The notes beneath the pieces are model-generated. The model was not told where the DNA came from. It was given only the letters and a program-made list of their open reading frames with translations, and ran no database searches. A stretch of 64,000 nt of DNA from Octopus vulgaris (Eukaryota): contig OX597827.1 of NCBI GenBank assembly GCA_951406725.2, forward strand, positions 45,136,001 through 45,200,000, written 5' to 3'. Below are positions 4,224 to 53,980 of this stretch, in pieces (position 1 is the first letter of the stretch; each line of letters opens with the position of its first letter). Position numbers and translations under genes: made by a program.

Positions 4224-4793
4224 CATTTCAGTTTCCGTCTACCAAATCCACTCACAATGCTTCGGTCGGTCCGAGGCTATAGTAGATGACACCTGCCTGA
4301 GGTGTCACGCAGTGAAACTGAACCCGGAAGCATGTGGTCGAGAAGCAAGCTTCTTACCACACATCCACTCCTGCAAGTATGTATATATCATTTTGATATG
4401 TGATTATATGTACTCTTTACTCTTTTATTTGTTTCAGTCATTTGACTGCGGCCATGCTGGAGCACCGCCTTTAATCGACCAACTCGACCCCAGGACTTAT
4501 TCTTTGTAAGCCTAGTACTTACTCTATCCGTCTATTGGCCGAACCGCTAAGTTACGGGGACGTAAAGACACCAGCATCGGTTGTCAAGCAATGGTGGGGG
4601 ACAAACACAGACACACAAACACACACATACATACATACATACATTTCAGTTTCCGTCTACCAAATCTTCTCACAATGCTTCGGTCGGTCCGAGGCTATAG
4701 TAGATGACACCACCTGAGGTGCCACCAGTGGGACTGAACCCAGAACCATGTGGTCGGGAAGCAAGCTTCTTACCACACATCCACTCCTGCGCC
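3768..4793 (-). mobile_element. Three adjacent SINE family A copies
   Basis: Repeated tail/core/head sequence; the last two share private variants. Confidence 0.85.
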
Positions 4794-9000: not shown

Positions 9001-10219
9001 GTTAGTTGTTTGACCCTTTTCTAGATGTAATCTTAGATATTTGTATGTACAACGGCAATACCATCCCAGATAAGAGAGCACTACTCCATGGTAGGTCTGG
9101 CGCGAGTCTTGTAAAGCTGTTGCAGACTGAAGTTTCTTCCGGCGTTGTTGTTGTTGTTAAGCAACAAGACGGGTAAGGGTGATTAGGTGATGGTCTAGGC
9201 TTAGGGGCGGGAGACCCCAGACCTTGGAAAAAAAACAACTTTGGTCGTCTTGTTGTAGTCGAGGGCTCTTCGTTGACGCCCGACACCGCTGGGAGGTGGC
9301 CCTCGAAGTCGCTAGAAATGGAGATCTCCAGGTCCGAATTCTTGAACGGCTTCTTCCGGCGTTGAAGAGAGGGGCCAGTCATTGGAAGAAAACTCTTGTT
9401 ATGGACAGAAACAGTTTTTACTATAAACTTCCGCACGATTTCTGTCTATTAAATATTCTTCACAAGGCTTTGATTGACTCGTGGGTTATGTAAGGTGCCG
9501 TGATGTAGGATCGTGACCAAAGTTCCCGAAACTCTAATCCTAACTTAACCACACAACCCTACCTGCATACAGGGGGAAAACCTAGTCAAACCGAACAGTT
9601 ATTAAAGGTATGCCAGCCGTGACCATCTAGCATATTTGAGGCTGACCTAGGGTCAAACGACTTCGTTAACGCCGCCGCCGCCGCCGCCACCGCCACCGCT
9701 ACCACCACCACCACCACCACCACCACCACCACCACCACTGTATGGTGAGGAGTGTATGAGCCGCACACTGGCGTACGAGTGGTTCAGACGTTTCCAAGAT
9801 GAACGATACGAATTCTCTGCTCAACTTTATCTGTGACGGTCAATGCAACGATCACACGCTACACATCTTCCTTCTAAGCACGGTTGTAAGCAGCAGAAGT
9901 GAGCTAGAACGTTGAAACTTAGTGTGCATGCATAGCAGCCTTTAAGGTCAATCTGTGCGAAGCGGCTTTATTGTGCGTGCCTTAGCTTCGTTACTATGCC
10001 AACAGTCAGGATACTTATTGATTTGACCATGTACACACAGATATCTCAACAGATCACAAGTCATATATTTTTGTAGTAACTCAACTACTACTGCTGCCCC
10101 CAACCCCTCACCTCTATTTTAAGAGTTTCAAAACTGTAATATAAAACATGTTATGGATATTTTATACTAATTTATTAATATTATTTTAAGATGAAATTTG
10201 TATTTCCCCCCTTAAACAG

Positions 10220-10435
10220 GATGTCATGAAAGAATTCAAAAAGCATCATCTTCTGAAAACCAGCCATTCGAGGGACAAGCTACCAGGGGTTATGTTATTA
10301 ACTCCTTGAAAGTACTTAGGCAAATTTCTTCGCAAGAATGTCTCCCCAATGTAATGTATGGGTATACGCTCACATCATGGTGGGTGAAAAAGGGATGCAT
10401 TGCAAAGTTTAAAATAGAAGAATGTCATCTTGCCG
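10220..10435 (+). CDS. Exon 2, lectin domain 1 (ADEL/DUF3011-like)
   Basis: Acceptor ttccccccttaaacag|, donor GCCG|GTAAGT, 216 nt, phase 1-1, open: GCHERIQKASSSENQPFEGQATRGYVINSLKVLRQISSQECLPNVMYGYTLTSWWVKKGCIAKFKIEECHLA; Q-x-S-x(2-3)-C...GY...WVxxGCxAxF motif as in Aplysia egg/gonad lectins. Confidence 0.9.
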
Positions 10436-10479
10436 GTAAGTTCTACTTTTGATTTATATTGTTGTTGTCATTGCTGCCG

Positions 10480-10908
10480 TTGTTTTTGTCGTTGCTGATT
10501 TTGTTGCTGTTGTGACTATAGTTGTTGTTGCTATTGCGTTGCTATTGTTGTTTGATGCTACTGTTGATGTATTTGCTGTTGGTGGATGCTGATACTGTCG
10601 TTATTTCGGTGCTGTTGCTGTCGTTTTTGTCGTTGCTGATTTTGATGCTGTTGTGACTATAGTTGTTGTTGCTATTGCGTTGCTATTGTTGTTTGGTGCT
10701 ACTGTTGATATTATTTGCTGTTGGTGGATGCTGATACTGTCGTTATTTCGGTGCTGTTGCTGTCGTTTTTGTCGTTGCTGATTTTGATGCTGTTGTGACT
10801 ATAGTTGTTGTTGCTATTGCGTTGCTATTGTTGTTTGGTGCTACTGTTGATATTATTTGCTGTTGGTGGATGCTGATACTGTCGTTATTTCGGTGCTGTT
10901 GCTGTCGT
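10480..10908. repeat. Tandem repeat, 141-142 bp x3, GTT-rich
   Basis: Unit starts at 10482, 10623, 10765. Confidence 0.9.
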
Positions 10909-11120
10909 TATTGTTGTTGGTGCCGCAGTTCTTGGTGATGCTGCTTTATTTTTTCTTTTGGTGTCGTCGCTGTTGTGCTGCTGCCACCGTCGTTGTTTTT
11001 GCTGATGTTTCCTGCTACTTTTGTTATCGTTATCGTCACTGTCGTCGTCGTCGTCGTTGTTGCTGTCATTGTTGCTGGTGTCGTTGTTGTGGTTTTGTTG
11101 CTAATCTTGTTGATCCTGAA

Positions 11121-11177
<57 letters not shown>

Positions 11178-11736
11178 GAGTGAGAGAGCAGTGCATGCCA
11201 TCAAAGTGACACTGGGGTAAAATATACGAAGCCCAGTATACCCATCATGACTACCGATCTGATAAGGGTACACTAGGCACTTGCATCACAACCATATGTG
11301 CGCGACATGGTGATCTCATATCAAGATAAACAGCACATGACCTTGCAGGTGGGGTGCAGTCAGAATTTTCTTCTGGTCGAGTAGCCCATCCCGCTCAAAA
11401 GATCTCTGAATAAGGGTTGTTTAAGGATGTTAACTGAAACACCCATGTTTCCAGAGGTGAATTATTCAAACCCCAAAGAATCCCTCTCAACACATGGCTA
11501 TGATGCTCCCCCACTAATTCTGCTCGTGATCTGAGATGCACACGCATATCGTCAGCCACCAAGGGACATGCTCAACTGGTTAAGGTCAAACAACTGACGA
11601 GCAAATCTGTGGTATTGAGCAGAATATTTGCTGTAGCCCATCTTTTATACCAAGACAAAACAATGTACATGATAACACTTCCAATCAGTTAAGATCAGAA
11701 GCCATGAGAGCCACTGCCTGGTACTGCATCAGGGCT

Positions 11737-11769
<33 letters not shown>

Positions 11770-12569
11770 GCTACTGCTCCTGCACATGGTATTATTCTTG
11801 CTACTGAGCAGAGACACATGATCAAAAGCATTCCAAACGTGATCCCCCAGGGCCACATAATCCAGTGCATCACACCTTATCCAAGACTTCGGCATGTGAT
11901 TACGAAGCGAATTAACTGCTGTCACCTCTAGCAACTGATGGGACCACGCAGAGGCTCCCTCGTAAATAGTTGCCAATTATTTTGTTGCTGTGACTGCTGT
12001 TGTTTTTGTTGTTGCTGTTTTTGCTTTGGCTTGTGTTCATGTTGTAGTGTTACTGTTGCCCTTTTTGTTGTTGTTGTTGTTGTTTCTGATATTGCTATTA
12101 TTGATGTTGTTGTCGTCATGATTGTTGTGTTGCTGTCACCCCTTGTCCTTATTTTTGTCGCTTAATTCAAAGTCAATTCGGATTCAGCAGACCTCTAATC
12201 AAAAGGCTTTCCATCCATGAGCATCCCGTCTTTTTTTTCCTTTTCCATACACTATCCTGATGTATCTTTCGCTTTATTAAAAAAAAAGAAAAGGAAGTTT
12301 TCGATGCCATTTTTTGTTTTAGTAGAATGAGCGACCCTAAAGAGGTTCTGTCTAATCAGCTCGGGTGAATAGGCGGGTGGATAAAGATCCTTTGATCCAT
12401 GGTTAATAAAAAACAAACAAACAAAAAAAAACACACCAAAATGCAAAGACAAAACATGTTGGGGATCTTACTGTGAAGTCCGACATACTCGGGATATTTG
12501 TGGTTGCTGTTGTTGTTGATGCTGTCGTTTCAGTCTTCCTGATCCAAGCTCCCCACCAGCTGCTGCTGT

Positions 12570-12634
<65 letters not shown>

Positions 12635-13244
12635 TCAGTTATCAGCGAAGCGTGAATGCAACCACTCGACCTGCTCGTAGTAGCAGCCAAATCTCTCTCA
12701 ACTCATGCGCTGTAATCTTAAAAGTAGGAAGAACGTCGGAGAATTTTGTCATGAATGGCAGGATGGATGGGTGCGCTATGTCTGAATAAAAGGTGGGACG
12801 GCCGTGGCTGGAATGCTTTTGATCGTAAGTCTATTCAATCATGGTTGGCCTAGGGTTAAACAATAACGACAAGAACAGCAATAACAGAGAGAGAAAGAGA
12901 GAGAGAGTGAGAGAGAGTGAGAGAGAGAGAGAGGTGGAGGGTGGGGGAATTAGTGAGGAGAGGGTGAATATTGAGGCTGGGCAATGGAAAAGCCTCGTTC
13001 TGGCATCCGTAGTGTAGTCAGAAATGTACAGATTTGAGCATTCTCGGCAGATATACCAACGACAGACTCCGCTTCCTGTCTTACAGGTGGCTAATATATT
13101 TGGTTTAGGCGAGGCTCTGACCCATTTGGACAAAGCCAATGGCTTCTACAAGCACTACCGTCCTCTGGCAAGGACACACTGGATAGTTGCCTGGTATCCC
13201 AACAAGTGTATGGGGCCCAACCTTGCCTAACCTTGCCGTTGATA

Positions 13245-13460
13245 CGAGTGGGTGCTGAAAAGTTCCTGGTTTTAAGGGTGTAGCGAAAGGCTTGGTTGGA
13301 GGACCAACTTTCCGTCTTCTTTTGCAGGGTTTAAAAAAAACTGAAGCACTGCAATAAGTGTGTGAAACTGAGAGGGGAATATGTTGAATAAAATCATAAT
13401 TAAGTGAGCCTCCTGTATTTTCTTTTTACCCAAAGTCAGGAACTTTTCAGCACTACCTCG
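13245..13460. mobile_element. Mariner-derived MITE
   Basis: TIRs cgagtgggtgctgaaaagttcctg / caggaacttttcagcactacctcg, TA flanks, 216 bp. Confidence 0.8.
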
Positions 13461-13519
13461 TAAATAAATACTATAGGGTTCAAGGCATTTATTTTCCCCC
13501 TTGGCCTAAATGTTGTTAA

Positions 13520-14070
13520 GGCAGCACTGCCATATAGGATGAGCCACCGCGACTCGGTAGCGGTGGTTCAGTGCTGACGGTTTCCGACTCGTTCTCAAAG
13601 ACTTGATTACTTCGATGTACAGCGGTGGATTTACGTACTCTGTTCGTCAAAGTTGTGTCATCACTCACGCCGTACCTTTACGTTTTAGTTCTTTAGTCAT
13701 CGCTGCAGGAACCCAGAGTCCTTGTTGAGATTTTTTCGCTCGAACTGGGACGCAGGAGGGTCGTGCTGGACATCATAGTAATCGTGATGGTCTGCACTGT
13801 ACTGAATAAATATGAGCCGATGACATGAGTACGCATTTAACGAGGACAAACTGGTGAGTTTGTAGTTCGATACGGTGGCAAATCAAAGTTGGGAAGCATT
13901 TGGGTCTGTGGAGCGAGGGTCATGTTAAGATGCTTGGTCTCGTTTGCGCGTCAAACCTTTTGGTGTAGAGTGCTTGGGATAAGTTAGATTACTAGCGGGG
14001 TTACCAGCGTCACACAGTAATGGGCTGAAAGGAAGCTAAAACAGAATGCACGCGCTTTGATGGCGGATTC
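13520..14070 (+). mobile_element. Highly decayed L1/Tx1-like reverse transcriptase fragment
   Basis: SVRQSC (cf. SVRQGCPLSP) and GHVKMLG remnants; many stops. Confidence 0.4.
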
Positions 14071-14375
14071 ATACATCATCCATGATGGGTATATTTTGGC
14101 GTAAGACCATTAATTTTGGGGAAGGGCTAAGTTGATTACATAGAACCCAGTGTTCAACTGGTACTTGTTATCGACCTCTAAAGGATGAAACACAAAATCG
14201 ACCCCGGCGGAATTTGAACCGAATATGAAAGACGGACGATATGCTGCTTGAATTTTGCTCAACGTGATAACAATTTGGCCAGCCGGCTGCCTTGTCCATG
14301 TTATTTATTACTGCCGAAATATCTTATCTACCTACCTACCTACCTACCTACCTACCTACCTACCTACCTACCTAC

Positions 14376-14423
<48 letters not shown>

Positions 14424-14465
14424 AATACAGGTAACCCGCATTGTTACTCCTCATCCATTTCTCTG

Positions 14466-14507
<42 letters not shown>

Positions 14508-14739
14508 GTATGTATGTATGCATATATATGTATATATATATATACATACATAAATACATACATACATACAAGCATGCATATATGCATGCACACACACACG
14601 CACGCACACACACACATACACACACACAGAGTGACACACACACATAGTCACACACACACTCACGGTTGACGAGCGAACGACACATTAAGTTGTATAGAGC
14701 CGGATGAAGATGTCATTAAATAAGTAATATATATATATC

Positions 14740-16685
14740 GTTACCTGACTTGTCGTCCGATGTCACTTTGTCCACCACTTCGTCCACGTCTTTTCGCCCG
14801 ACGTCTTTTTGTCCAACGACTTTTTGTCCAATTTTAAATAAGCTCTTTAGAAAACAAGGTGAACATGAATTCATTGAGAATTTCATTGATAAAATTCAAA
14901 TAAAATACTGAGGGGAAAATATATTTAAAAAAAGTCATTTAAAAAAAAGTAATAAGATATAACTAATGATTTATTATGATCACTTAAATTATGTGTCACA
15001 CTCTTCAAAAAAATCAATTTTTCTTGTTGACCCATATCCAATGACCAATCTTTTGAGGCGTTCAGTAATTCTTCGATATCGTGTACATGAATTTGATGAA
15101 TCTCTTTGAAGAATTTGAGCCTTTTTACCTCTTCCTTCAAGAGTTTTGATGAGTTTCCAAATATTCAAATGTGCTCCATCCGCCGAACGCTTTATCGCAG
15201 AATGAAACCCCTCCGCAGCATTATTTATTCTGGGAAGGTCTTGAAGAATACGCTGATTAACATTCCATACAGCTATCGGGAATGTAGGGGGTTCTCTCCT
15301 TCGTCTCTCACAACGTCTATGTAACTCAAGTCGCAGTAAGCCATGAATTCAGTAGGTAGTTCTTCATCGCGTATTAATTCTTCATAGACCTCTTCGACTT
15401 CTTCAACGAGTAGGAAGGCTAATGCTGAAAAACATCGAATTTTAAGACAGAATTCAGAGTCTTTATTGTATTTTTCTTTGGGGCCTGAATCTGTGATTGG
15501 CTCAAATGAATCAAGCATGCCACGGTAGATGAAATAGGGAATGATGAATTAAATGCCTTATGAACTGCAACTTCGAAATCTGCCATGAGAGCAAGCGGAT
15601 ATGCATTGGGTTGCATAATTTTCAATTGCTCGAAAAATAATTAATATATCTGCTTTGTTTTATTCGCTAGTAATACAAAGAGCCGTGGAAAACTGCTACC
15701 TTTAATTTGTACATGAATGGTAAACAGTTGAAACCACTGTTCTGGGACAATTTTGAACGTTCCATCACATACCCAATGACGATATGAAGCTATATCCTGA
15801 AGAGAACTTTCTGATGCAAATGATAGCATGCGCTGTTGATCCTCGAAACCCGAATCGTATCTCAGAAACTGTTCGCCATTATCAAGTTTATAATATTCTT
15901 CAGGTATTTCAAAACCAGTTCTAGCCCCTGGATTAGCGGGAAATCTAGAATTTGTTTTGTCTGCACCTTTGAATAGACCTTGAAAGTACAGGTAAACGAG
16001 GAAGTTGAGAGCAATTATTTTATATTAGTTGCGTAAACTTAGCCGCTATTATGCTACGCGAACTTTCTGCTATGTTTTCCACCGCTTCATGCTTTATTTC
16101 TGCAACTGCTTTTCTAGCATTTAACGAATCTACGTCAGCTGGATGAAGGTGCTCACTAGAAAAATAATTTTCGGCTCCTTGTTTCCCGTTACCGTGTGAA
16201 TTCGCACTGAACACAGCCTTCTTCTCTCACATCTCCAGCATTCTTTTCCTAGTTTTGTATTGCTTAAATGAAAGTCGTAGAAGTGATTACTTTCATCAAC
16301 CACTTTTCTTTTGTTTTTGGCCTATGCTATGAACGTTGTCATTTCGGAATGGATAAATTAAAAATATGTAAACTAAATTTGCAGCACACTCTATACACAG
16401 CACCGTTCTTAAGAGAAAGAAGGAAAAAGAGAAAGTAAAACTGTTAACAGAGAAGGAAAAAGAACGATAATAACAATCCTATAACGTGGCTCGTTATAGT
16501 CCTGTGAATATAGCACCAGAGATATTTCACCTTGTATTCTAAAGAGCTTATTTAAAATTGGACAAAACGTCGTTGGAGAAAAAGAATCACCGGACAAAAA
16601 GACGTCGGACGAAAAGACGTAGACGAAGTGACGTTGGACGAAGTGACGTTGGACGAAGTGACGCCGAACGAAAAGTCATAGCTAT
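14740..16685 (-). mobile_element. Mutator-like (FLYWCH-MULE) DNA transposon, decayed
   Basis: Long TIRs with internal subrepeats (about 14746-14864 vs 16526-16678); WVCDGTFKIVPEQWFQLFTIH and LMADFEVAV..ACLIHLSQ MULE motifs in broken ORFs 16214-14925. Confidence 0.9.
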
Positions 16686-17354
16686 ATATATACATATACA
16701 CTCACACACACTCAATTCTCAACGTTTCGTCTATGATATACTTCCCCTACCTTTATCTATTTTGCTATTTGCCCCATTACTCTCATGAAAGATATGCATA
16801 AAATAATCTCTCTCTTTCCCAACCGCTCTTTTTTAGATAGCGTGTTAGCACTATCACAAACCTGTGTGCGCGGGCGGTTGAAAAATTTTCTATGTTCTAT
16901 GATCATTCAGGTTTTCTGGGTTATTGATTATTTGCTAAATGGCTTCTGGTCTTGATGCCAATATGTTCATAGAGTTTCGGTTCAAATAAATATTCGTGCA
17001 ATACATTAAACCTTCAATGTTTAGGATATTCCACGATTCGACATTGAATGATATTGCGGGCTGCGGCGGGGGATGAAGGCGATGTTTAAGTAAGTGTCAG
17101 TCGCTGTAAATGAATGGGATATAGCTTTCCCTTAGGATAGGATGATGTGTGACCTGCATAATCAGCTTTCCTAAATGGATTTGTACGAATAAGGCGTATG
17201 AGTGGCTGTGTGGTAAGAAGCTTTCTTTCCAACCACATGGTTCCAGGTTCAGTCCCACTGCGTGGCACCTTGGGCAAGTGTTTTCTACTATAGCCTCGGG
17301 CCGACCAAAGCCTTGTGAGTGGATCTGGGAGATGGAAACTGAAAGAAGCCTGTC

Positions 17355-17541
<187 letters not shown>

Positions 17542-17551
17542 CATATATATA

Positions 17552-18639
17552 TAATACAATAAAATAAAATACAATAAAAATGGTAAATAATTTTCCTGTG
17601 GTTTTTCATGTAACCAACAATTATTTACCGGTAAATTTCGGTATGTAAATACGACAAAATAATTGTCAAGACCTTTGTAAGGTTCAGTATATAGTAAAGA
17701 AAAATAAGTTGGCTAGCAGCAAGCTGTTTCGCCTCATACCGAAGGAATTAGAAATGGCAGTCAAAGACCAATTTTTTCCATTTCTATAAGTGGAGATTCC
17801 AAAAACGAAGGCCCTTGGGTCTCACATACACAAAACCGGAGTGGCAAATATACGAATTCAGTCACTTACCGTTAATAGCGAACACGGTGTTTCTGGATCA
17901 CAAACATATAAAAAAAGGGGAGTTTGAATTCCGTCATCAGCGCTATATTCGACAGCTTTATCAAATGCCACCAGCCCTCACTACTGACCCAGCGACATCA
18001 GATAGTGGGGGGAAGTGCGCAGATGTTAAAACCAAGTAACGACTGGGAACGTAAACTTTCCCTCCAAAATTCTGCCATGCGCGCCTTCTGGGTAATCGTA
18101 ATGGAATGAGGAATCCACATGGTAATACAATAAAAATGGTAAATAATTTTCCTGTGGTTTTTCATGTAACCAACAATTATTTACCGGTAAATTTCGGTAT
18201 GTAAATACGACAAAATAATTGTCAAGACCTTTGTAAGGTTCAGTATATAGTAAAGAAAAATAAGTTGGCTAGCAGCAAGCTGTTTCGCCTCATACCGAAG
18301 GAATTAGAAATGGCAGTCAAAGACCGTTTTTTCCATTTCTATAAGTGGAGATTCCAAAAACGAAGGCCCTTGGGGCTCACATACACAAAACCGGAGTGGC
18401 AAATATACGAATTCAGTCACTTACCGTTAATAGCGAACACGGTGTTTCTGGATCGCTATTAACGGTAAGTGACTGAATTCGTATATTTGCCACTCCGGTT
18501 TTGTGTATGTGAGCCCCAAGGGCCTTCGTTTTTGGAATCTCCACTTATAGAAATGGAAAAAACGGTCTTTGACTGCCATTTCTAATTCCTTCGGTATGAG
18601 GCGAAACAGCTTGCTGCTAGCCAACTTATTTTTCTTTAC
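17552..18639 (-). mobile_element. Penelope-like / retrozyme-like non-autonomous element: tandem pseudo-LTR plus inverted copy
   Basis: Direct repeats 17568-17899 and 18124-18454 (offset 555-556); perfect inverted arm 18453-18639; hammerhead; 55-aa minus ORF 18165-17998 ending AEFWRESLRSQSLLGFN resembling a GIY-YIG C-terminus; inserted in (TA)n. Confidence 0.7.
17875..17946 (-). ncRNA. Type I hammerhead ribozyme motif (intact core)
   Basis: Minus strand: AUAGCG-CUGAUGA-C-GGA..CAAAC-loop-GUUUG..UCC-A-GAAA-CAC-C-GUG-UU^CGCUAU; 6-bp helix I, paired helix II, minimal near-palindromic helix III, NUH = GUU; predicted cut between 17881 and 17880. Confidence 0.8.
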
Positions 18640-18644
18640 ATATA

Positions 18645-18680
<36 letters not shown>

Positions 18681-19814
18681 TGTATGTATGTATGTATGTA
18701 TGTATGTATTTGTGTGTTTGCGTTTGTTCGCCCCACTATTGCTTGACAACTGGTGTTGGTGTGTTTATGTCCCCATAACCTAGCGGTTCGGCAAAAGACA
18801 ACCGATAGACTAAGTACTAGGCTTACAAAGAATAAGTCCTGGGATCGATTTGTTCGACTAAAGGTGGTGCTCCAGCTTGGCCGCAGTTCAAATGGCCGAA
18901 ACAAGTAGAAGAATGAAATAATACAAATGAAATGAAAAGCAAAATGGATTCGAAGTTTCTTAATTGGGAGGTTCATCAAAATGAACCTCCCAATTTAATG
19001 GAATTCGGAATTTAAGAATTTAGGACTGATATCTTAATTGCCACTCGACTAAAGAAACTGGCACTCCGTCGGTTGCGACGACGAGGGTTCCAGTCGATCC
19101 GATCAACGGATCAATTTGTTCGTGAAATTAATGTGCAAGTGGCCGAGCACTCCACAGACACGTGTACCCTTAACGTATTTCTCGGCGAGATTCAGCGTGA
19201 AACAGAGGCCGGCCCTTTGAAATACAGGTACTACCCATTTTTGCCAGCTAAGTAGACTAGTGAAGTAGACTAGTGAAGTAGACAACTAAGTAGACTAGTG
19301 GACTAACGTGAAGTGAAGTGTCTTGCTCAAGGGCACGACTTGTCGCTGGGAATCGAACTCACAACCTTACGATTGTGAGCCGAATAGCCTAACCACTAAG
19401 TCACGTACCCTCACCGCCACTTAATTAGATTAGAATTAATTGCCGAATTCCGCACTTTCTGCCATTGTTGTCGTTCTGTGTAGCATAAACATGTGGTATA
19501 AGCATCACTATCTTTCAAAATCCTGCTGCATTCCACATGGAATTTTTGGTCATCCAAAGTCGTCTTGGAGTATAAGTCGACCCACCATTTTTTGGCTGTA
19601 AATTTTAGCTTGAAAAAGTCGACTTGTATGCCGGAAAATACGAGAGCTAATTGGTCTTTTATATTTGACAATTCCCAATTGTTCCCTTGACCATTCTTGA
19701 ACTTTTGACTTTAAATGGGGGAAGCTGTGATTATGCTTGCAAAGACGATAGATATTATTTATATTCATGTTTGGAATTATCTTTTGAAACCTCCGTCATT
19801 GTTCTGTGATTCAG

Positions 19815-20042
19815 ATTGTGTCATACGTACTCGATCAGGGAGCAATCCTTATTTCGTCCTCACTTTCCACCCTGCGACACCGGGCTTTCGTATAAAACTT
19901 GTTAGTCTATGGAAGCAGACATCCTACCACCCCTGCCGGCCTGGTTCCACTTTATTCTACAATGAAACGATGTGGTGGCTTGACAAAGGATGCGAGGGCA
20001 GGTTTCAAATTCTTGAATGCCCCTTACTTCCGATCGATTACG
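19815..20042 (+). CDS. Exon 3, lectin domain 2 (ADEL/DUF3011-like)
   Basis: Acceptor gattcag|, donor TACG|GTAAGT, 228 nt, phase 1-1: DCVIRTRSGSNPYFVLTFHPATPGFRIKLVSLWKQTSYHPCRPGSTLFYNETMWWLDKGCEGRFQILECPLLPIDY; four Cys aligned with exon 2; NET sequon. Confidence 0.9.
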
Positions 20043-20073
20043 GTAAGTTTTTGGCTCTTTATATACATATAAA

Positions 20074-20545
<472 letters not shown>

Positions 20546-21290
20546 TATATATATATTTGATCGAGGTGGCAGTCGATTTTCTGGAAGAATCTAGGAACCT
20601 ATGTTTCCATTGGTTTGGCAAATAGCTGATATTATTCTACAGTCGCAGCTCCTGGTAGAAGCGTTAATGTTTTTCAGTGTCAGAGACGAGATTTGAACAT
20701 AAATACTCTAAACAATTCCGCTTATCCACCGCCCTGATCTGATATTTGTTTTTTATCGTGCTCGAAAGGATAGAAAGACAAAGTTGATCTTAACGTAATT
20801 TGAATTCACACCGCAGAGAGTCAGAAAAAATATCGCGAGTCATTCTACTCAACACCGTTAAATTTATTTCAAGAGGAGTCAAAGTTTTCGTCGCACAGCT
20901 GCGACCTTTTCACTGACATAACTGCAACTACTTGAAACTCTGTTAACAGTCAATTCTGAATGAGGTGGTTTTTTTCTTTTCTTCCTTTTATTCTAGTTTG
21001 AGCTTAGAGACATGTGTGTTCGTTGTACTTACGTACACTAACTCTCTTCCCATCGTATCAATTGCTAATCGGTTAATCATTTTTAGTTTACACACACACA
21101 CACACACATATATATATATGTGTGTAAATAAGTATATAGTTAAGTGTAACCACATTTGTAAGTTCATATTAAAGCTTTTTATGTTTATTACTATTGCTTT
21201 CTCTTTAACATTTGTCCATTCAACAAAACATCACAAACACCTCTAGTACCTCAATACTTAATTTCTAAAAGTATGTTCCCCGTCTTTGTA

Positions 21291-21622
21291 GGCGCATGGC
21301 TCAGTGGTTAGAGCGTCGAGCTTACGATCGTGAGGTTGTGAGCTCGAATCCCGGACCGGGTTGCGTGTTGTGTTCTTGAGCAAGGCACTTTATTTCACGT
21401 TGCTCCAGTTCACTCAGCTGTAGAAATGAGTTGCGACGTCACTGGTGCCAAGCTGTATCGACCTTTGTCTTTCCCTTGGATAACACTGGTGGCGTGGAGA
21501 GGGGAGGCTGGTATGCATGGGCGACTGCTGGTCTTCCATAAACAACCTTGCCCGGACTTGTGTCTAGGAGGGTAACTTTCTAGGTGCAATCCCATGGTCA
21601 TTCATGACCGAAGGGGGTCTTT
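21291..21622 (+). mobile_element. tRNA-derived SINE family D with 19-bp TSD
   Basis: A/B boxes tggctcagtgg / gctcgaatcc; TSD tatgttccccgtctttgta at 21272-21290 and 21623-21641. Confidence 0.9.
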
Positions 21623-21670
21623 TATGTTCCCCGTCTTTGTACACATTAAAGTATATAGCAGAAATTTCTA

Positions 21671-22218
21671 TTGGGTTGTCCGGAAAGTTCGTGCCGATTT
21701 ATAGTAGCTTATCTTTCGACTTATTTTAGAACATGGTTGTGGCCATAAAATAGGATTTGACTACACCTCCATTTAGAGCATAGTTTAAGCTATCTTTTCG
21801 TGGAAGAAGGTTTATGTTCCTATAACCTGTGTTAATTCTGTAACCCTTTAAAATGGAAGATAAGAAAGTTCATTTTCGGCACTTGATGCTTTGGGAACCA
21901 AACAAAAATTGCTGCAGCTCGGCTGGAATGTGTTACTCCACCCTCCATATTCACCAGATATTGCTCCTTCGGATTTCCACTTACCAGGTCTCTACAGAAT
22001 AGTCTTAATGGTAAAAATTTCAATTCCTTGGATGATGTAAATTCTTTGCCACGAAACCACCTCATTTCTGGGAAGAGGGTATTTTCAAGTTAAAGGAAAG
22101 ATGGAGATGCATTGTGCAACAAAATGGCTCATATTTGGTTGATTAAAAATGTAATGGCAAGTATTTATTGACCTGTTTCTTTCCTTTAAAAATCGGCAAG
22201 AACTTTCCGGACAACCAA
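21671..22218 (+). mobile_element. Internally deleted mariner
   Basis: TIRs ttgggttgtccggaaagttc / gaactttccggacaaccaa, TA flanks; MEDKKVHFRHLMLW joined to LGWNVLLHPPYSPDIAPSDFHL. Confidence 0.9.
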
Positions 22219-23268: not shown

Positions 23269-23544
23269 ATGTATGTATGTATGTATGTATGAATGTATGT
23301 ATGTATGTATATATACATTTTCTTTCTCTCTCAGTCTCTCCCTCTCTTTCTTTCTCCTTCTGTTACTAGTTTCAGCTTGAGGCAGTATTTATTTTTGGTT
23401 TTCTTTATCGTTGCCTTTTTCCAACACTCGACATAAACCCCACTGCCCACCTACTGTTTCTGAGCTTCGTATTCATAATATCATCCGTCTGTCGCTCATT
23501 TGGCAAATATATAAATAATCGTCATTATTGTATTTTTCCAACAG

Positions 23545-23867
23545 CCTTGACACCAACTGAAGCGCCCGGAGGGAGTCTGGAAGTAAACGAAAATCACAAG
23601 AGCAACAGGAAGCATTTTAAATTCGACGCCGACACTATATCCCCGGGCTATTACCCGAGCGAAAGAAGGAAAACCGCACAAGAGAGGAGAGGCAACGATC
23701 GAAAACAACAAACACACGAAGTAGAAGCTTCCGGTAACGTTCATCCACTTACAATGGAGAAGAGTGACACAACCACTGCCAGCCGTCATGAAGGCAACAG
23801 CTCTCCAGCACTATTGATCACGACGTTGTTGTTAGTTGTCGCCCTTGGAATACATATGCTTCTGTAA
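23545..23867 (+). CDS. Exon 4: hydrophilic linker and C-terminal GPI-anchor-like signal
   Basis: Acceptor tatttttccaacag|, phase 1; ends ...RHEGNSSPALLITTLLLVVALGIHMLL-TAA (23865-23867) with no cytoplasmic tail; AATAAA at about 23926 and 23934; four exons sum to 924 nt = 307 aa + stop. Confidence 0.85.
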
Positions 23868-25278: not shown

Positions 25279-25880
25279 GGCGGCGAGCTGGCACAAACGT
25301 TAGCACGCCGGGCGAAATGCTTAGCGGTATTTCGTCTGTCGTTACGTTGTGAGTTCAAATTCCGCCGAGGTCGACTTTGCCTTTCATCCTTTCGGGGTCG
25401 ATTAAATAAGTACCAGTTACGCACTGGGGTCGATATAATCGACTTAATCCGTTTGTCTGTCCTTGTTTGTCCTCTCTGTGTTTAGCCCCTTGTGGGTAGT
25501 AAAGAAATAGGTATTTCGTCTGCTGTTACGTTCGGAGTTCAAATTCCGCCGAGGTCGACTTTGCCTTTCATCCTTTCTGGGTCGATTAAATAAGTACCAG
25601 TTACGCACTGGGGTCGATATAATCGACTTAATCCGTTTGTCTGTCCTTGTTTGTCCCCTCTGTGTTTAGCCCCTTGTGGGTAGTAAAGAAATAGGTATTT
25701 CGTCTGCTGTTACGTTCTGAGTTCAAATTCCGCCGAGGTCGACTTTGCCTTTTATCCTTTCGAGGTCGATTAAATAAGTACCAGTTACGCACTGGGGTCG
25801 ATATAATCGATTTAATCCGTTTGTCTGTCCTTGTTTGTCCCCTTGTGGGCAATAAAGAAATAAGAAACGTTAGCACGCTG
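25279..25880 (+). mobile_element. SINE family B trimer (184-bp internal unit x3)
   Basis: ggtatttcgtctg at 25326, 25510, 25694. Confidence 0.85.
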
Positions 25881-48039: not shown

Positions 48040-49435
48040 ACAACATTATCGAGTGCACATCAACATTACCTGGGCCACTCCAACATTATCTGACACATAG
48101 ACACACTATTTATCGCACACTAACTTTATCTACCATACTCACATACATTGCCTAGGGCATACCGACATTGCTTAGCTCACATCAATATTAAGCAGTACAT
48201 AGCAACATTATCTAGCACACATCAACATTATTTACCGCATACCAATATTATCAAGCGCGTACCAATATCATAAAGTACACGCCAACAATATCTAGCACAG
48301 GCCAAGATTATCTACCGAACATTATTATCTAACACACATCAATGCTACCTACTGCATATCAGCACTGTCGAGGGCACTCCTAGATTATTTAGGGCGAACC
48401 AATATTATCTCGCCAAGACCAACATTATCTAGTACATACCAACATTATTTACCGCACGCCACAATTGCCAATGGTACACTTAGCGCACACAAATATTATC
48501 CGCATATATCAACATTATCTGGCACACATTAACATTGCATAGCGCGTACCAACATTTTCTAATGCACACCAACAATAACTATCACAGGCAAATATCATCC
48601 AGTGAACACTAATATCTAGTGCACATCAATATCATCTAACACACACCAGCATCATCTAGGATACATCAACACTATTTTGCGCAGACCAACAATTATCTTA
48701 CGAACCCCGAACGTATCTTGCACAGACCAACTTTATCTAGTGTATACCAACATTGTCTTGAGCACATCGACATTATCTAGTGAACACCAAGATCATCTTG
48801 CGCAGAGTAACAGTATCCAGTACACATCACCATTATCTACCGCACACAAGCATTATTAACCGTGCACCAACATTATCTAGCACACACCAACTTTATCTAG
48901 CGCACACCAAGATTATCAACCGCACATCAACATTATCATCTGCGCATCAACATTATCTAACGAAACCAACATGATTTAGTGCAAACCAATATTATCTTGC
49001 GTAGCCCAATATTATCTTGCGCAGACCAATATTATCTTGCGCAAACCAATATTATCTTGCGAAGACCAACATTATCTTGCGCAGACCAATAATATCTTGC
49101 TTAGACCAACATTATCTTGCTTAGACCAACAATATCTTGCTTAGACCAACATTATCTTGCGCAGGCCAACATTATCTTGCGCAGACCAATATTATCTTGC
49201 GCAGACCAATATTATCTTGCGCAGACCAACATTATCTTGCGTAGACGAACATTATCTTGTGCAGACCAACATTATCTTGCTTAGACCAACATTATCTTGC
49301 GCAGACCAACATTTTCTTGCGTAGACGAATATTATCTTGCGCAGACCAATATTATCTTGCGCAGACGAACATTATCTTGCGTAGACCAATATTATCTTGC
49401 GCAGACCAACATTATCTTGCGCAGAACAACATTAC
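48040..49435. repeat. 20-bp minisatellite (accaacattatcttgcgcag)
   Basis: Degenerate from 48040, homogeneous 48985-49432. Confidence 0.92.
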
Positions 49436-53552: not shown

Positions 53553-53980
53553 CCCTAGTATTCAACCGGTACTTATTTTATCGACCCCGAAATGATGAAA
53601 GGCAAAGTTGACCCCCGCGGCATTTGAATTCAGCGTAAAGACGGACGAAATACCTATTTCTTTACTACCCACAAGGGGCTAAGCACAGAGAGGACAAACA
53701 AGGACATATAAAGGGATTAAGTCGATTATACCGACACCAGTGCGTAACTGGTACTTATTTAATCGATTCCGAAAGGTTGAAAGGCTAAGTCGACCTCGGC
53801 GGAATTTGAACTCAGAACCTAGCGGCAGACGAAATACCTGTTTCTTTACTACCCACAAGGGGCTAAACAGAGGGAACAAACAAGGACAGATAAACGGATG
53901 AAATCGATTATATCGACACCAGTGCGTAACTGGTACTTAATTTATCGACCCCGAAAGGATGAAAGGCAAAGTCGACCTCT
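53553..53980 (-). mobile_element. SINE family B multimer
   Basis: Same tail-to-body junction as 25510. Confidence 0.8.

Follow-up and report, generated by a model that had tools for sequence, protein, structure and literature searches.

Mapping of a named octopus protein onto the window, the whole 64,000-nt stretch of Octopus vulgaris DNA analyzed here, identified a host gene with four plus-strand exons (86-96% identity). Exon 1 lies at 1714-1872 and exon 4 at 23544-23855, and the intron between exons 2 and 3 carries an antisense insertion (Table 1). The earlier note had assigned this insertion to an intron of a lectin gene. The intronic location is correct, and the lectin part corresponds to two DUF3011 stretches in the host protein, a domain of the Aplysia egg lectin according to the accessible text of PMC5484111, with sugar binding putative. 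No relative of the host protein was found in the PDB, and the effect of the insertion on the host gene is probably neutral. Transcribed as part of the host pre-mRNA, the insertion would fold, over 18250-18639, into a 187-bp double-stranded hairpin that may constitute an RNA-editing substrate, and a donor-like GTAAGT occurs on this strand at 18465-18470 (+). Elsewhere in the window, a 142-nt tandem repeat (10475-10919) directly follows host exon 2, and further tandem repeats occupy 25326-25847 (184 nt), 48041-49434 (20/40 nt) and 53564-53979 (182 nt). The minus strand of 15641-16330 holds fragmented ORF pieces bearing a DGTF motif, which we take to be typical of MULE-type transposases; the 127-aa piece among them has no Pfam match.

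The insertion consists of two arms flanked by TA-rich repeats. The main arm, 887 nt long, comprises a full 555-nt unit (18454-17900) and 332 nt of the next unit (17899-17568). Compared across these 332 nt, the copies show two substitutions and one indel, in keeping with the roughly three differences previously noted. The head-to-tail repeat with cut sites 555 nt apart that had been described is correct in its period, but its upstream site is a half-site devoid of CUGAUGA. The 187-bp inverted arm, absent from the earlier description, joins the main arm 5'-to-5' with an overlap of 2 nt. Its start coincides with the ribozyme cut position, and its end (here 205) is the one found at ~211 across the family; with the main arm ending at ~330, the window copy matches the family's ends.

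Table 1. Features of the octopus insertion and its surroundings (window coordinates).
Feature	Position	Strand	Remarks
Host gene exons 2 (~10219-10434) and 3 (~19811-20044)	10219..20044	+	Element antisense in intron 2
(TA)n target repeat, left flank	17356..17552	.	
15-nt tandem duplication of the main arm's 3' end	17553..17567	-	At the TA-repeat junction
Main arm	17568..18454	-	3' end at the family's ~330 end
Conserved 3' motif	17735..17760	-	Common to the wider superfamily; also at 18316-18291 and in the inverted arm
GTAAGT donor-like site	17864..17869	-	Overlaps the stem Ib 3' strand; no sign of use
Extended type I hammerhead motif	17868..17953	-	From sequence and covariation; model score 82 bits, by construction
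Hairpin of 5 bp with 10-nt loop, upstream of the ribozyme	17983..18002	-	Compensatory changes across sister families
55-aa ORF	17998..18165	-	Homologues not detected; reading frame not conserved among sister families
Upstream hammerhead half-site (GAAA, helix III, putative cut position 18436/18435, helix I 3' strand)	18430..18454	-	Lacks CUGAUGA
Inverted arm	18453..18639	+	Perfectly reverse-complementary to 18436-18250 over 187 bp
(TA)n/(TATG)n repeat, right flank	18640..18709	.	

The type I hammerhead that the earlier note placed on the minus strand (17946-17875) is real as a motif, although its helix II, taken to be paired, opens with a C17933/A17894 mismatch. Helix I pairs 17946-17941 with 17880-17875 (6 bp) and is preceded by stem Ib and a 3x3 internal loop. 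The core is formed by CUGAUGA (17940-17934) and GAAA (17893-17890), helix II contains an internal loop, and helix III consists of 3 bp within a near-palindrome (17890-17882). Judging from the sequence, the putative GUU cut site falls at 17881/17880, after U17881. The mismatch occupies position 10.1-11.1, which is thus C.A where hammerheads have G10.1-C11.1. The motif is the sole descriptor match on both strands of the 64 kb, with none on the host strand. The Rfam search that had been suggested as a check returned no hammerhead at E ≤ 1 in window positions 14000-22000, and none reached the gathering score among four related loci. For the motif alone, the minimum-energy fold is not the hammerhead (z -0.28; -9.9 kcal/mol for the hammerhead fold versus -16.0 kcal/mol for the minimum), while the whole unit presents more structure than 40 shuffles (z -3.4). 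The final pair of the small hairpin upstream of the ribozyme is broken in the window copy.

In a predicted fold of the whole-insertion transcript, the 187-bp arms form a long hairpin that absorbs the 3' strand of the upstream half-site and places this half-site at the loop/stem junction. With a single full hammerhead, and an upstream half-site that should be locked in this hairpin, the window locus is predicted to be a poor source of circles. Release of a 555-nt monomer from this locus, as previously proposed, is not supported for the same reason, and the window locus itself is probably a passive copy.

Genome-wide searches revealed that the unit is multi-copy and forms tandem arrays, where the earlier note had envisaged a single-copy unit as grounds for abandoning its reading. 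The unit yielded 146 scored matches from 40 of 1090 candidates, with full units 93-100% identical, and exact matches numbered 142 for the ribozyme 5' half and 538 for the 26-nt 3' motif, against none for the reversed-pattern controls. The first 100 matches to the 3' motif were grouped by us into 68 loci, from which the total, older subfamilies included, extrapolates to roughly 300-370 insertions. Arrays reach ~4.6 units, spaced at 552-562 nt or 546-549 nt, with up to four complete motifs per array. The unit is low in GC (0.40) and non-coding, its 55-aa ORF being free of homologues and broken in frame in relatives, and the family is dispersed across most chromosomes, inserted at TA targets with 3' ends that are fixed and 5' ends that vary. 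A looser version of the 3'-motif pattern gave 4477 matches and led to sister families, all of ~500-550 nt, with no long ORFs in the copies examined. No RT + GIY-YIG ORF was found inside or adjoining the fetched family copies. Copy number, identity, insertion footprint and helix covariation all agree with the young, multi-copy, non-autonomous, Penelope-associated hammerhead element first envisaged.

Several other loci surfaced in these searches. Three multi-unit arrays (L007, L008 and L088) lie within 35 kb near a contig start (G000:C13:266791-301592) and adjoin gaps and poorly polished sequence; they may be source loci or mis-assemblies. Other, unrelated hammerhead-bearing two-armed elements occur in TA repeats at L185 (1390-1860), L042 (2780-3145), L039, L095, L098 and L112. 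The C7 cluster of a 13-mer proved unrelated. One family copy (L005) lies near an exon with a QACRG motif, presumably caspase-like, and another (L081) near an exon that we assume to be potassium-channel-like, both named from motifs.

To assess the ribozyme helices we analyzed covariation in 23 sequences hand-picked from 92 distinct ones, in which changes derive from only 2-4 lineages and hence represent few events. Within this set 97.2% of cells are paired and 11 of 20 pairs present changes on both sides, a level reached by 13 of 500 shuffles, while slid controls give at most 2. The helix covariation on which the earlier note had made its reading depend is therefore found across the sister families, and involves helix I, stem Ib, helix IIb, helix III and the 3-8 core pair, which is C-G, U-A or U.G in all 23 sequences. 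Across 188 clade contexts, position 3-8 is C-G in 155, U-A in 22, U.G in 8 and otherwise in 3, position 4 is U in 124 and C (U4C) in 63, and the cleavage triplet is mostly GUU. Helix III is palindromic in 179 of the 188, among which a few repeats are possible from overlapping loci.

Position 10.1-11.1 is G-C in none of the 188 clade contexts, being A.A in 97, C.A in 78, an unopposed A in 11 and otherwise in 2. The outgroup family G (20 copies from 25 loci), which shares the helix II register, presents G-C in 15 copies, G.U in 4 and A.C in 1. Because this outgroup mostly keeps G-C, the mismatch is likely derived. The accessible text of PMC4209133 describes G10.1-C11.1 as highly conserved in Penelope hammerheads, U.U is the sole 10.1-11.1 exception named in the consulted portion of a natural-variant survey (PMC3088659), and the available part of PMC544870 contains nothing on 10.1-11.1 mismatches. 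The helix III palindromes are predicted to pair between two copies, with no hairpin, at duplex energies of -4.6 to -10.3 kcal/mol. Palindromes of the dimeric axolotl ribozymes likewise pair between copies, as reported in the accessible part of PMC7229834. Together, these features suggest a ribozyme that would be slow and dimer-dependent; among predicted Xenopus dimers, 8 of 9 failed to cleave according to the available text of bioRxiv 10.64898/2026.07.22.740005.

The insertion footprint was read from an alignment of all 68 loci (at least 84% for 61 loci, the remaining 7 being older subfamilies). The 61 aligned loci comprise 28 two-armed and 33 one-armed insertions, and in all 28 two-armed loci the 5' ends are joined and the 3' ends point outward. 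These 3' ends form two clusters in the unit, at ~211 (class 183-215) and at ~330 (class 322-335), and both sites are short TAT-like stretches. Both ends fall in the main classes in 20 of the 28 two-armed loci, with one of each in 19 of these 20 (p 2e-5); the other eight loci have one end outside the two classes. The interval from ~211 to ~330 corresponds to a 120-nt version of the Penelope 'tail', and a (TA)3 lies within 24 nt after 76 of 78 main-site ends. Penelope-like elements are described, in the accessible text of PMC8557442, as carrying a tail of 30-40 bp at one of their ends, together with inverted 5' copies and a (TA)n bias, and the Anolis Penelope enzyme, in that of PMC11167929, as a predicted dimer that cuts both strands, with two internal RNA start sites delimiting the tail. 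An RT + GIY-YIG Penelope copy within the octopus genome (L175, 1296-4480) likewise lies in TA repeats as two arms laid out in this way, one of them longer by 27 nt. Its hammerhead carries U4C and U.U at 10.1-11.1, and its relatives L181 and L189 have U4.

We consider that the locus is best explained as a young, dispersed, non-coding 555-nt hammerhead repeat, likely written into TA microsatellites by a Penelope enzyme acting in trans. That the element is non-autonomous and mobilized by Penelope machinery is, within this reading, very probable, whereas real self-cleavage is supported and opposed in about equal measure, and the case for a circular template is likewise evenly balanced. Under this model the arrays would be transcribed, and paired hammerheads would cut slowly in a dimer fold, perhaps assisted by protein, after which a host ligase would close some of the 555-nt monomers. 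A Penelope-type RT/endonuclease supplied in trans would then nick both strands of (TA)n, and each DNA 3' end would pair with a short TAT-like RNA site, one RNA offering two fixed sites 120 nt apart. Synthesis from the primed ends would proceed round the circle, or else follow an uncut multimer, and the two cDNAs would be joined at their far ends via short homology.

Compatible with this explanation is the possibility, doubtful in our judgment, that the unit is an internally deleted Penelope element, its ORF fusing the parent's start with a GIY-YIG end and its 5' region retaining an intron. The 55-aa ORF is real, although the end quoted for it in the earlier note falls 8 residues short. Endonuclease C-termini of the GIY-YIG type proposed there do occur in this genome, the best 21-residue match of the unit to them is the ORF end, on the sense strand, and natural subfamilies present Pro or Gly at the places expected of such an end. 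Xenopus retrozymes also match Penelope pLTRs in the accessible text of bioRxiv 10.64898/2026.07.22.740005. Against this derivation, the score against a profile of 16 in-genome endonuclease ends is equaled by 63 of 300 shuffles (27 of 300 for the B subfamily), so that the likeness does not rise above shuffles. Frameshifts affect the sister families, the final Asn is missing from the commonest ORF variant, and the ORF has neither a Pfam match nor a homologue among 1.84 billion representatives or by word search. The GIY-YIG remnant is consequently not upheld. The GTAAGT said to lie about 11 nt after the cut site does begin 11 nt after it, at 17869, but the retained intron it suggested finds no spliced joint in the contigs of the sequencing runs, and the GT is missing from sister families D and E.

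The search for an autonomous parent combined PF01541 matches, a back-translated endonuclease-end pattern, single copies with 3.5 kb upstream and a covariance model (70 sources). None of the fetched GIY-YIG loci shares unit sequence, in a search that scored the best 150 of 6136 candidates. A weak covariance-model match (L042) is a separate element on the opposite strand. The search also brought to light a young 781-codon RT + GIY-YIG Penelope family with many intact frames (L172, 1439-3781 and ~4655-4705; L171, L173, L174 and L180), whose 3' end shows by eye a U3-A8 hammerhead-like motif before a TA repeat. This family is a candidate donor of the enzyme.

The nature of the template separates the preferred explanation from a second alternative. 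Only 2 of 85 arms start within 3 nt of the cut, the 5' ends being otherwise scattered. On this count 5' ends were rejected as marks of ribozyme cleavage, although the inverted arm in the window does begin at the cut. Moreover, the cut site lies inside 55 of 94 arms, and arms extend beyond one unit. Given these scattered 5' ends and arms crossing the cut site, the template would not have been a linear monomer released by cleavage, and would instead have been either a closed circle or a multimer left uncut. Locus-private variants common to all overlapping pieces number 14, in 11 of 86 loci, and span opposite arms in 6, compared with 119 private variants confined to a single piece, in a sample of 122 of some 300 loci. 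These shared variants lend modest support to each insertion deriving from one template molecule. Identity within loci (~1%) is no better than that to the nearest other locus, and as a test it does not separate circle from multimer.

Sequencing runs bear on the same question. Parts of the stretch are present in 20 of 24 listed runs from 7 studies, none of which is recorded as RNA. Two runs that are RNA only by guess (X1 and X2) each yielded one 585-nt contig, ~98% like the unit, and the X2 contig contains a joint going back 555. A third such run (X6) was fragmented among variants, and X11 gave no contig. The 585 nt would correspond to the 555-nt unit plus a 30-nt assembly overlap, as expected from either a circle or a pure multimer. 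Coming from uncontrolled runs that are RNA by guess, these contigs are at most a hint of unit RNA.

We regard as rather unlikely the alternative that Penelope-driven spread uses an uncut, multimeric read-through transcript, with a slow or dead hammerhead kept as a protein-binding or dimerizing structure. The clade-wide 10.1-11.1 mismatch and U4C in a third of the contexts fit such a structure, and tandem transcripts would yield the same 585-nt contig as a circle. The genome shows no trace of cleavage, as 5' ends are not piled at the cut site, and hammerhead cleavage was unnecessary for insertion of the Anolis element in vitro (PMC11167929, accessible text). On the other hand, conservation through many substitutions extends to the 3-8 pair, to G5, A6 and A9, to the GAAA and to the NUH triplet and palindrome, as catalysis requires. 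Furthermore, copies of a multimer should only shrink, yet arrays of more than four units recur in old and young subfamilies. As for a DNA-level satellite or assembly artefact with a chance hammerhead-like motif, which the Rfam result and poorly polished contigs such as L088 might suggest, it is highly improbable and largely refuted by the dispersal on most chromosomes, the fixed 3' and variable 5' ends, the TA targets, the presence in 20 of the 24 listed runs and the covariation.

The element, read as a retrozyme-like repeat mobilized by Penelope machinery, can be set against known systems, here through the accessible portions of the works cited. Like the metazoan non-LTR retrozymes (PMC7229834; bioRxiv 10.64898/2026.07.22.740005), it consists of low-GC, non-coding tandem units with one type I hammerhead each and a short palindromic helix III suited to dimers, dispersed as monomers to multimers, for which a Penelope origin has been proposed. 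Its 555-nt unit exceeds the 170-400 nt of retrozyme circles (Cervera and de la Pena 2020, PMC7229834) and lies within the 51-972 bp given by Li, Clavereau and Pollet (2026, bioRxiv 10.64898/2026.07.22.740005), by whose two-unit rule the window locus, with one complete motif, would fail. It differs from those retrozymes in the 10.1-11.1 mismatch and in an insertion footprint that can be read directly, while cleavage and circles are putative here. With EN+ Penelope-like elements and non-autonomous partners of theirs, for example MRC1 (Craig et al. 2021, PMC8557442; Frangieh et al. 2024, PMC11167929), it shares partial tandems, an inverted 5'-truncated copy, a tail at one end only, (TA)n targets and two internal start sites. 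Unlike EN+ Penelope-like elements, it has no RT or endonuclease, and its tail is 120 nt rather than 30-40 (PMC8557442). TA-like microhomology is present at the octopus start sites, in contrast to the Anolis sites, which lack homology to the target (PMC11167929), and we found no description of the near-strict pairing of one site per arm in the available text of PMC8557442 and PMC11167929. Palindromic helix III, U3-A8 covariation, low expected activity and use as dimers are common to Penelope pLTR hammerheads and natural variants in Cervera and de la Pena (2014, PMC4209133) and Perreault et al. (2011, PMC3088659). Those sources stress a conserved G10.1-C11.1, whereas the octopus clade has A.A or C.A fixed, and a helix I that is extended, not minimal.

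Taken together, the element would work like an animal non-LTR retrozyme mobilized by Penelope machinery, as a variant with a non-canonical core and putative cleavage and circles. Given that G10.1-C11.1 is absent from every clade context, we file it as a retrozyme-like variant and not as a canonical member. The class and its footprint are already known; this family stands out by a 10.1-11.1 mismatch that runs through the whole clade while the outgroup is canonical. We found no account of cephalopod hammerhead retroelements in the article texts searched, and the family may be catalogued unnamed in Repbase or Dfam. Cephalopods are not covered in the available parts of bioRxiv 10.64898/2026.07.22.740005 and PMC7229834, and the main text of PMC13282606 contains none of 'ribozyme', 'hammerhead' or 'retrozyme'.

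These results bear on how retrozymes enter genomes, on the role of Penelope hammerheads and on the origin of inverted and tailed Penelope insertions. As a substrate the family is short and young, its copies ~98% identical and its start sites mapped, and it provides a natural core series (C3-G8, U3-A8, U3.G8, U4C and the 10.1-11.1 mismatch) alongside a canonical outgroup. Speculatively, and with more against it than for it in our estimation, a whole octopus retrozyme clade may have replaced the near-invariant G10.1-C11.1 with a mismatch. Its hammerhead would then be deliberately throttled and depend on a dimer or a protein, and its 555-nt circles would be copied by a dimeric Penelope enzyme that primes both ends of the TA break at two fixed sites 120 nt apart. 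If true, the clade would offer hundreds of natural records of a Penelope integration intermediate, as well as a series of natural mutants in an active ribozyme core.
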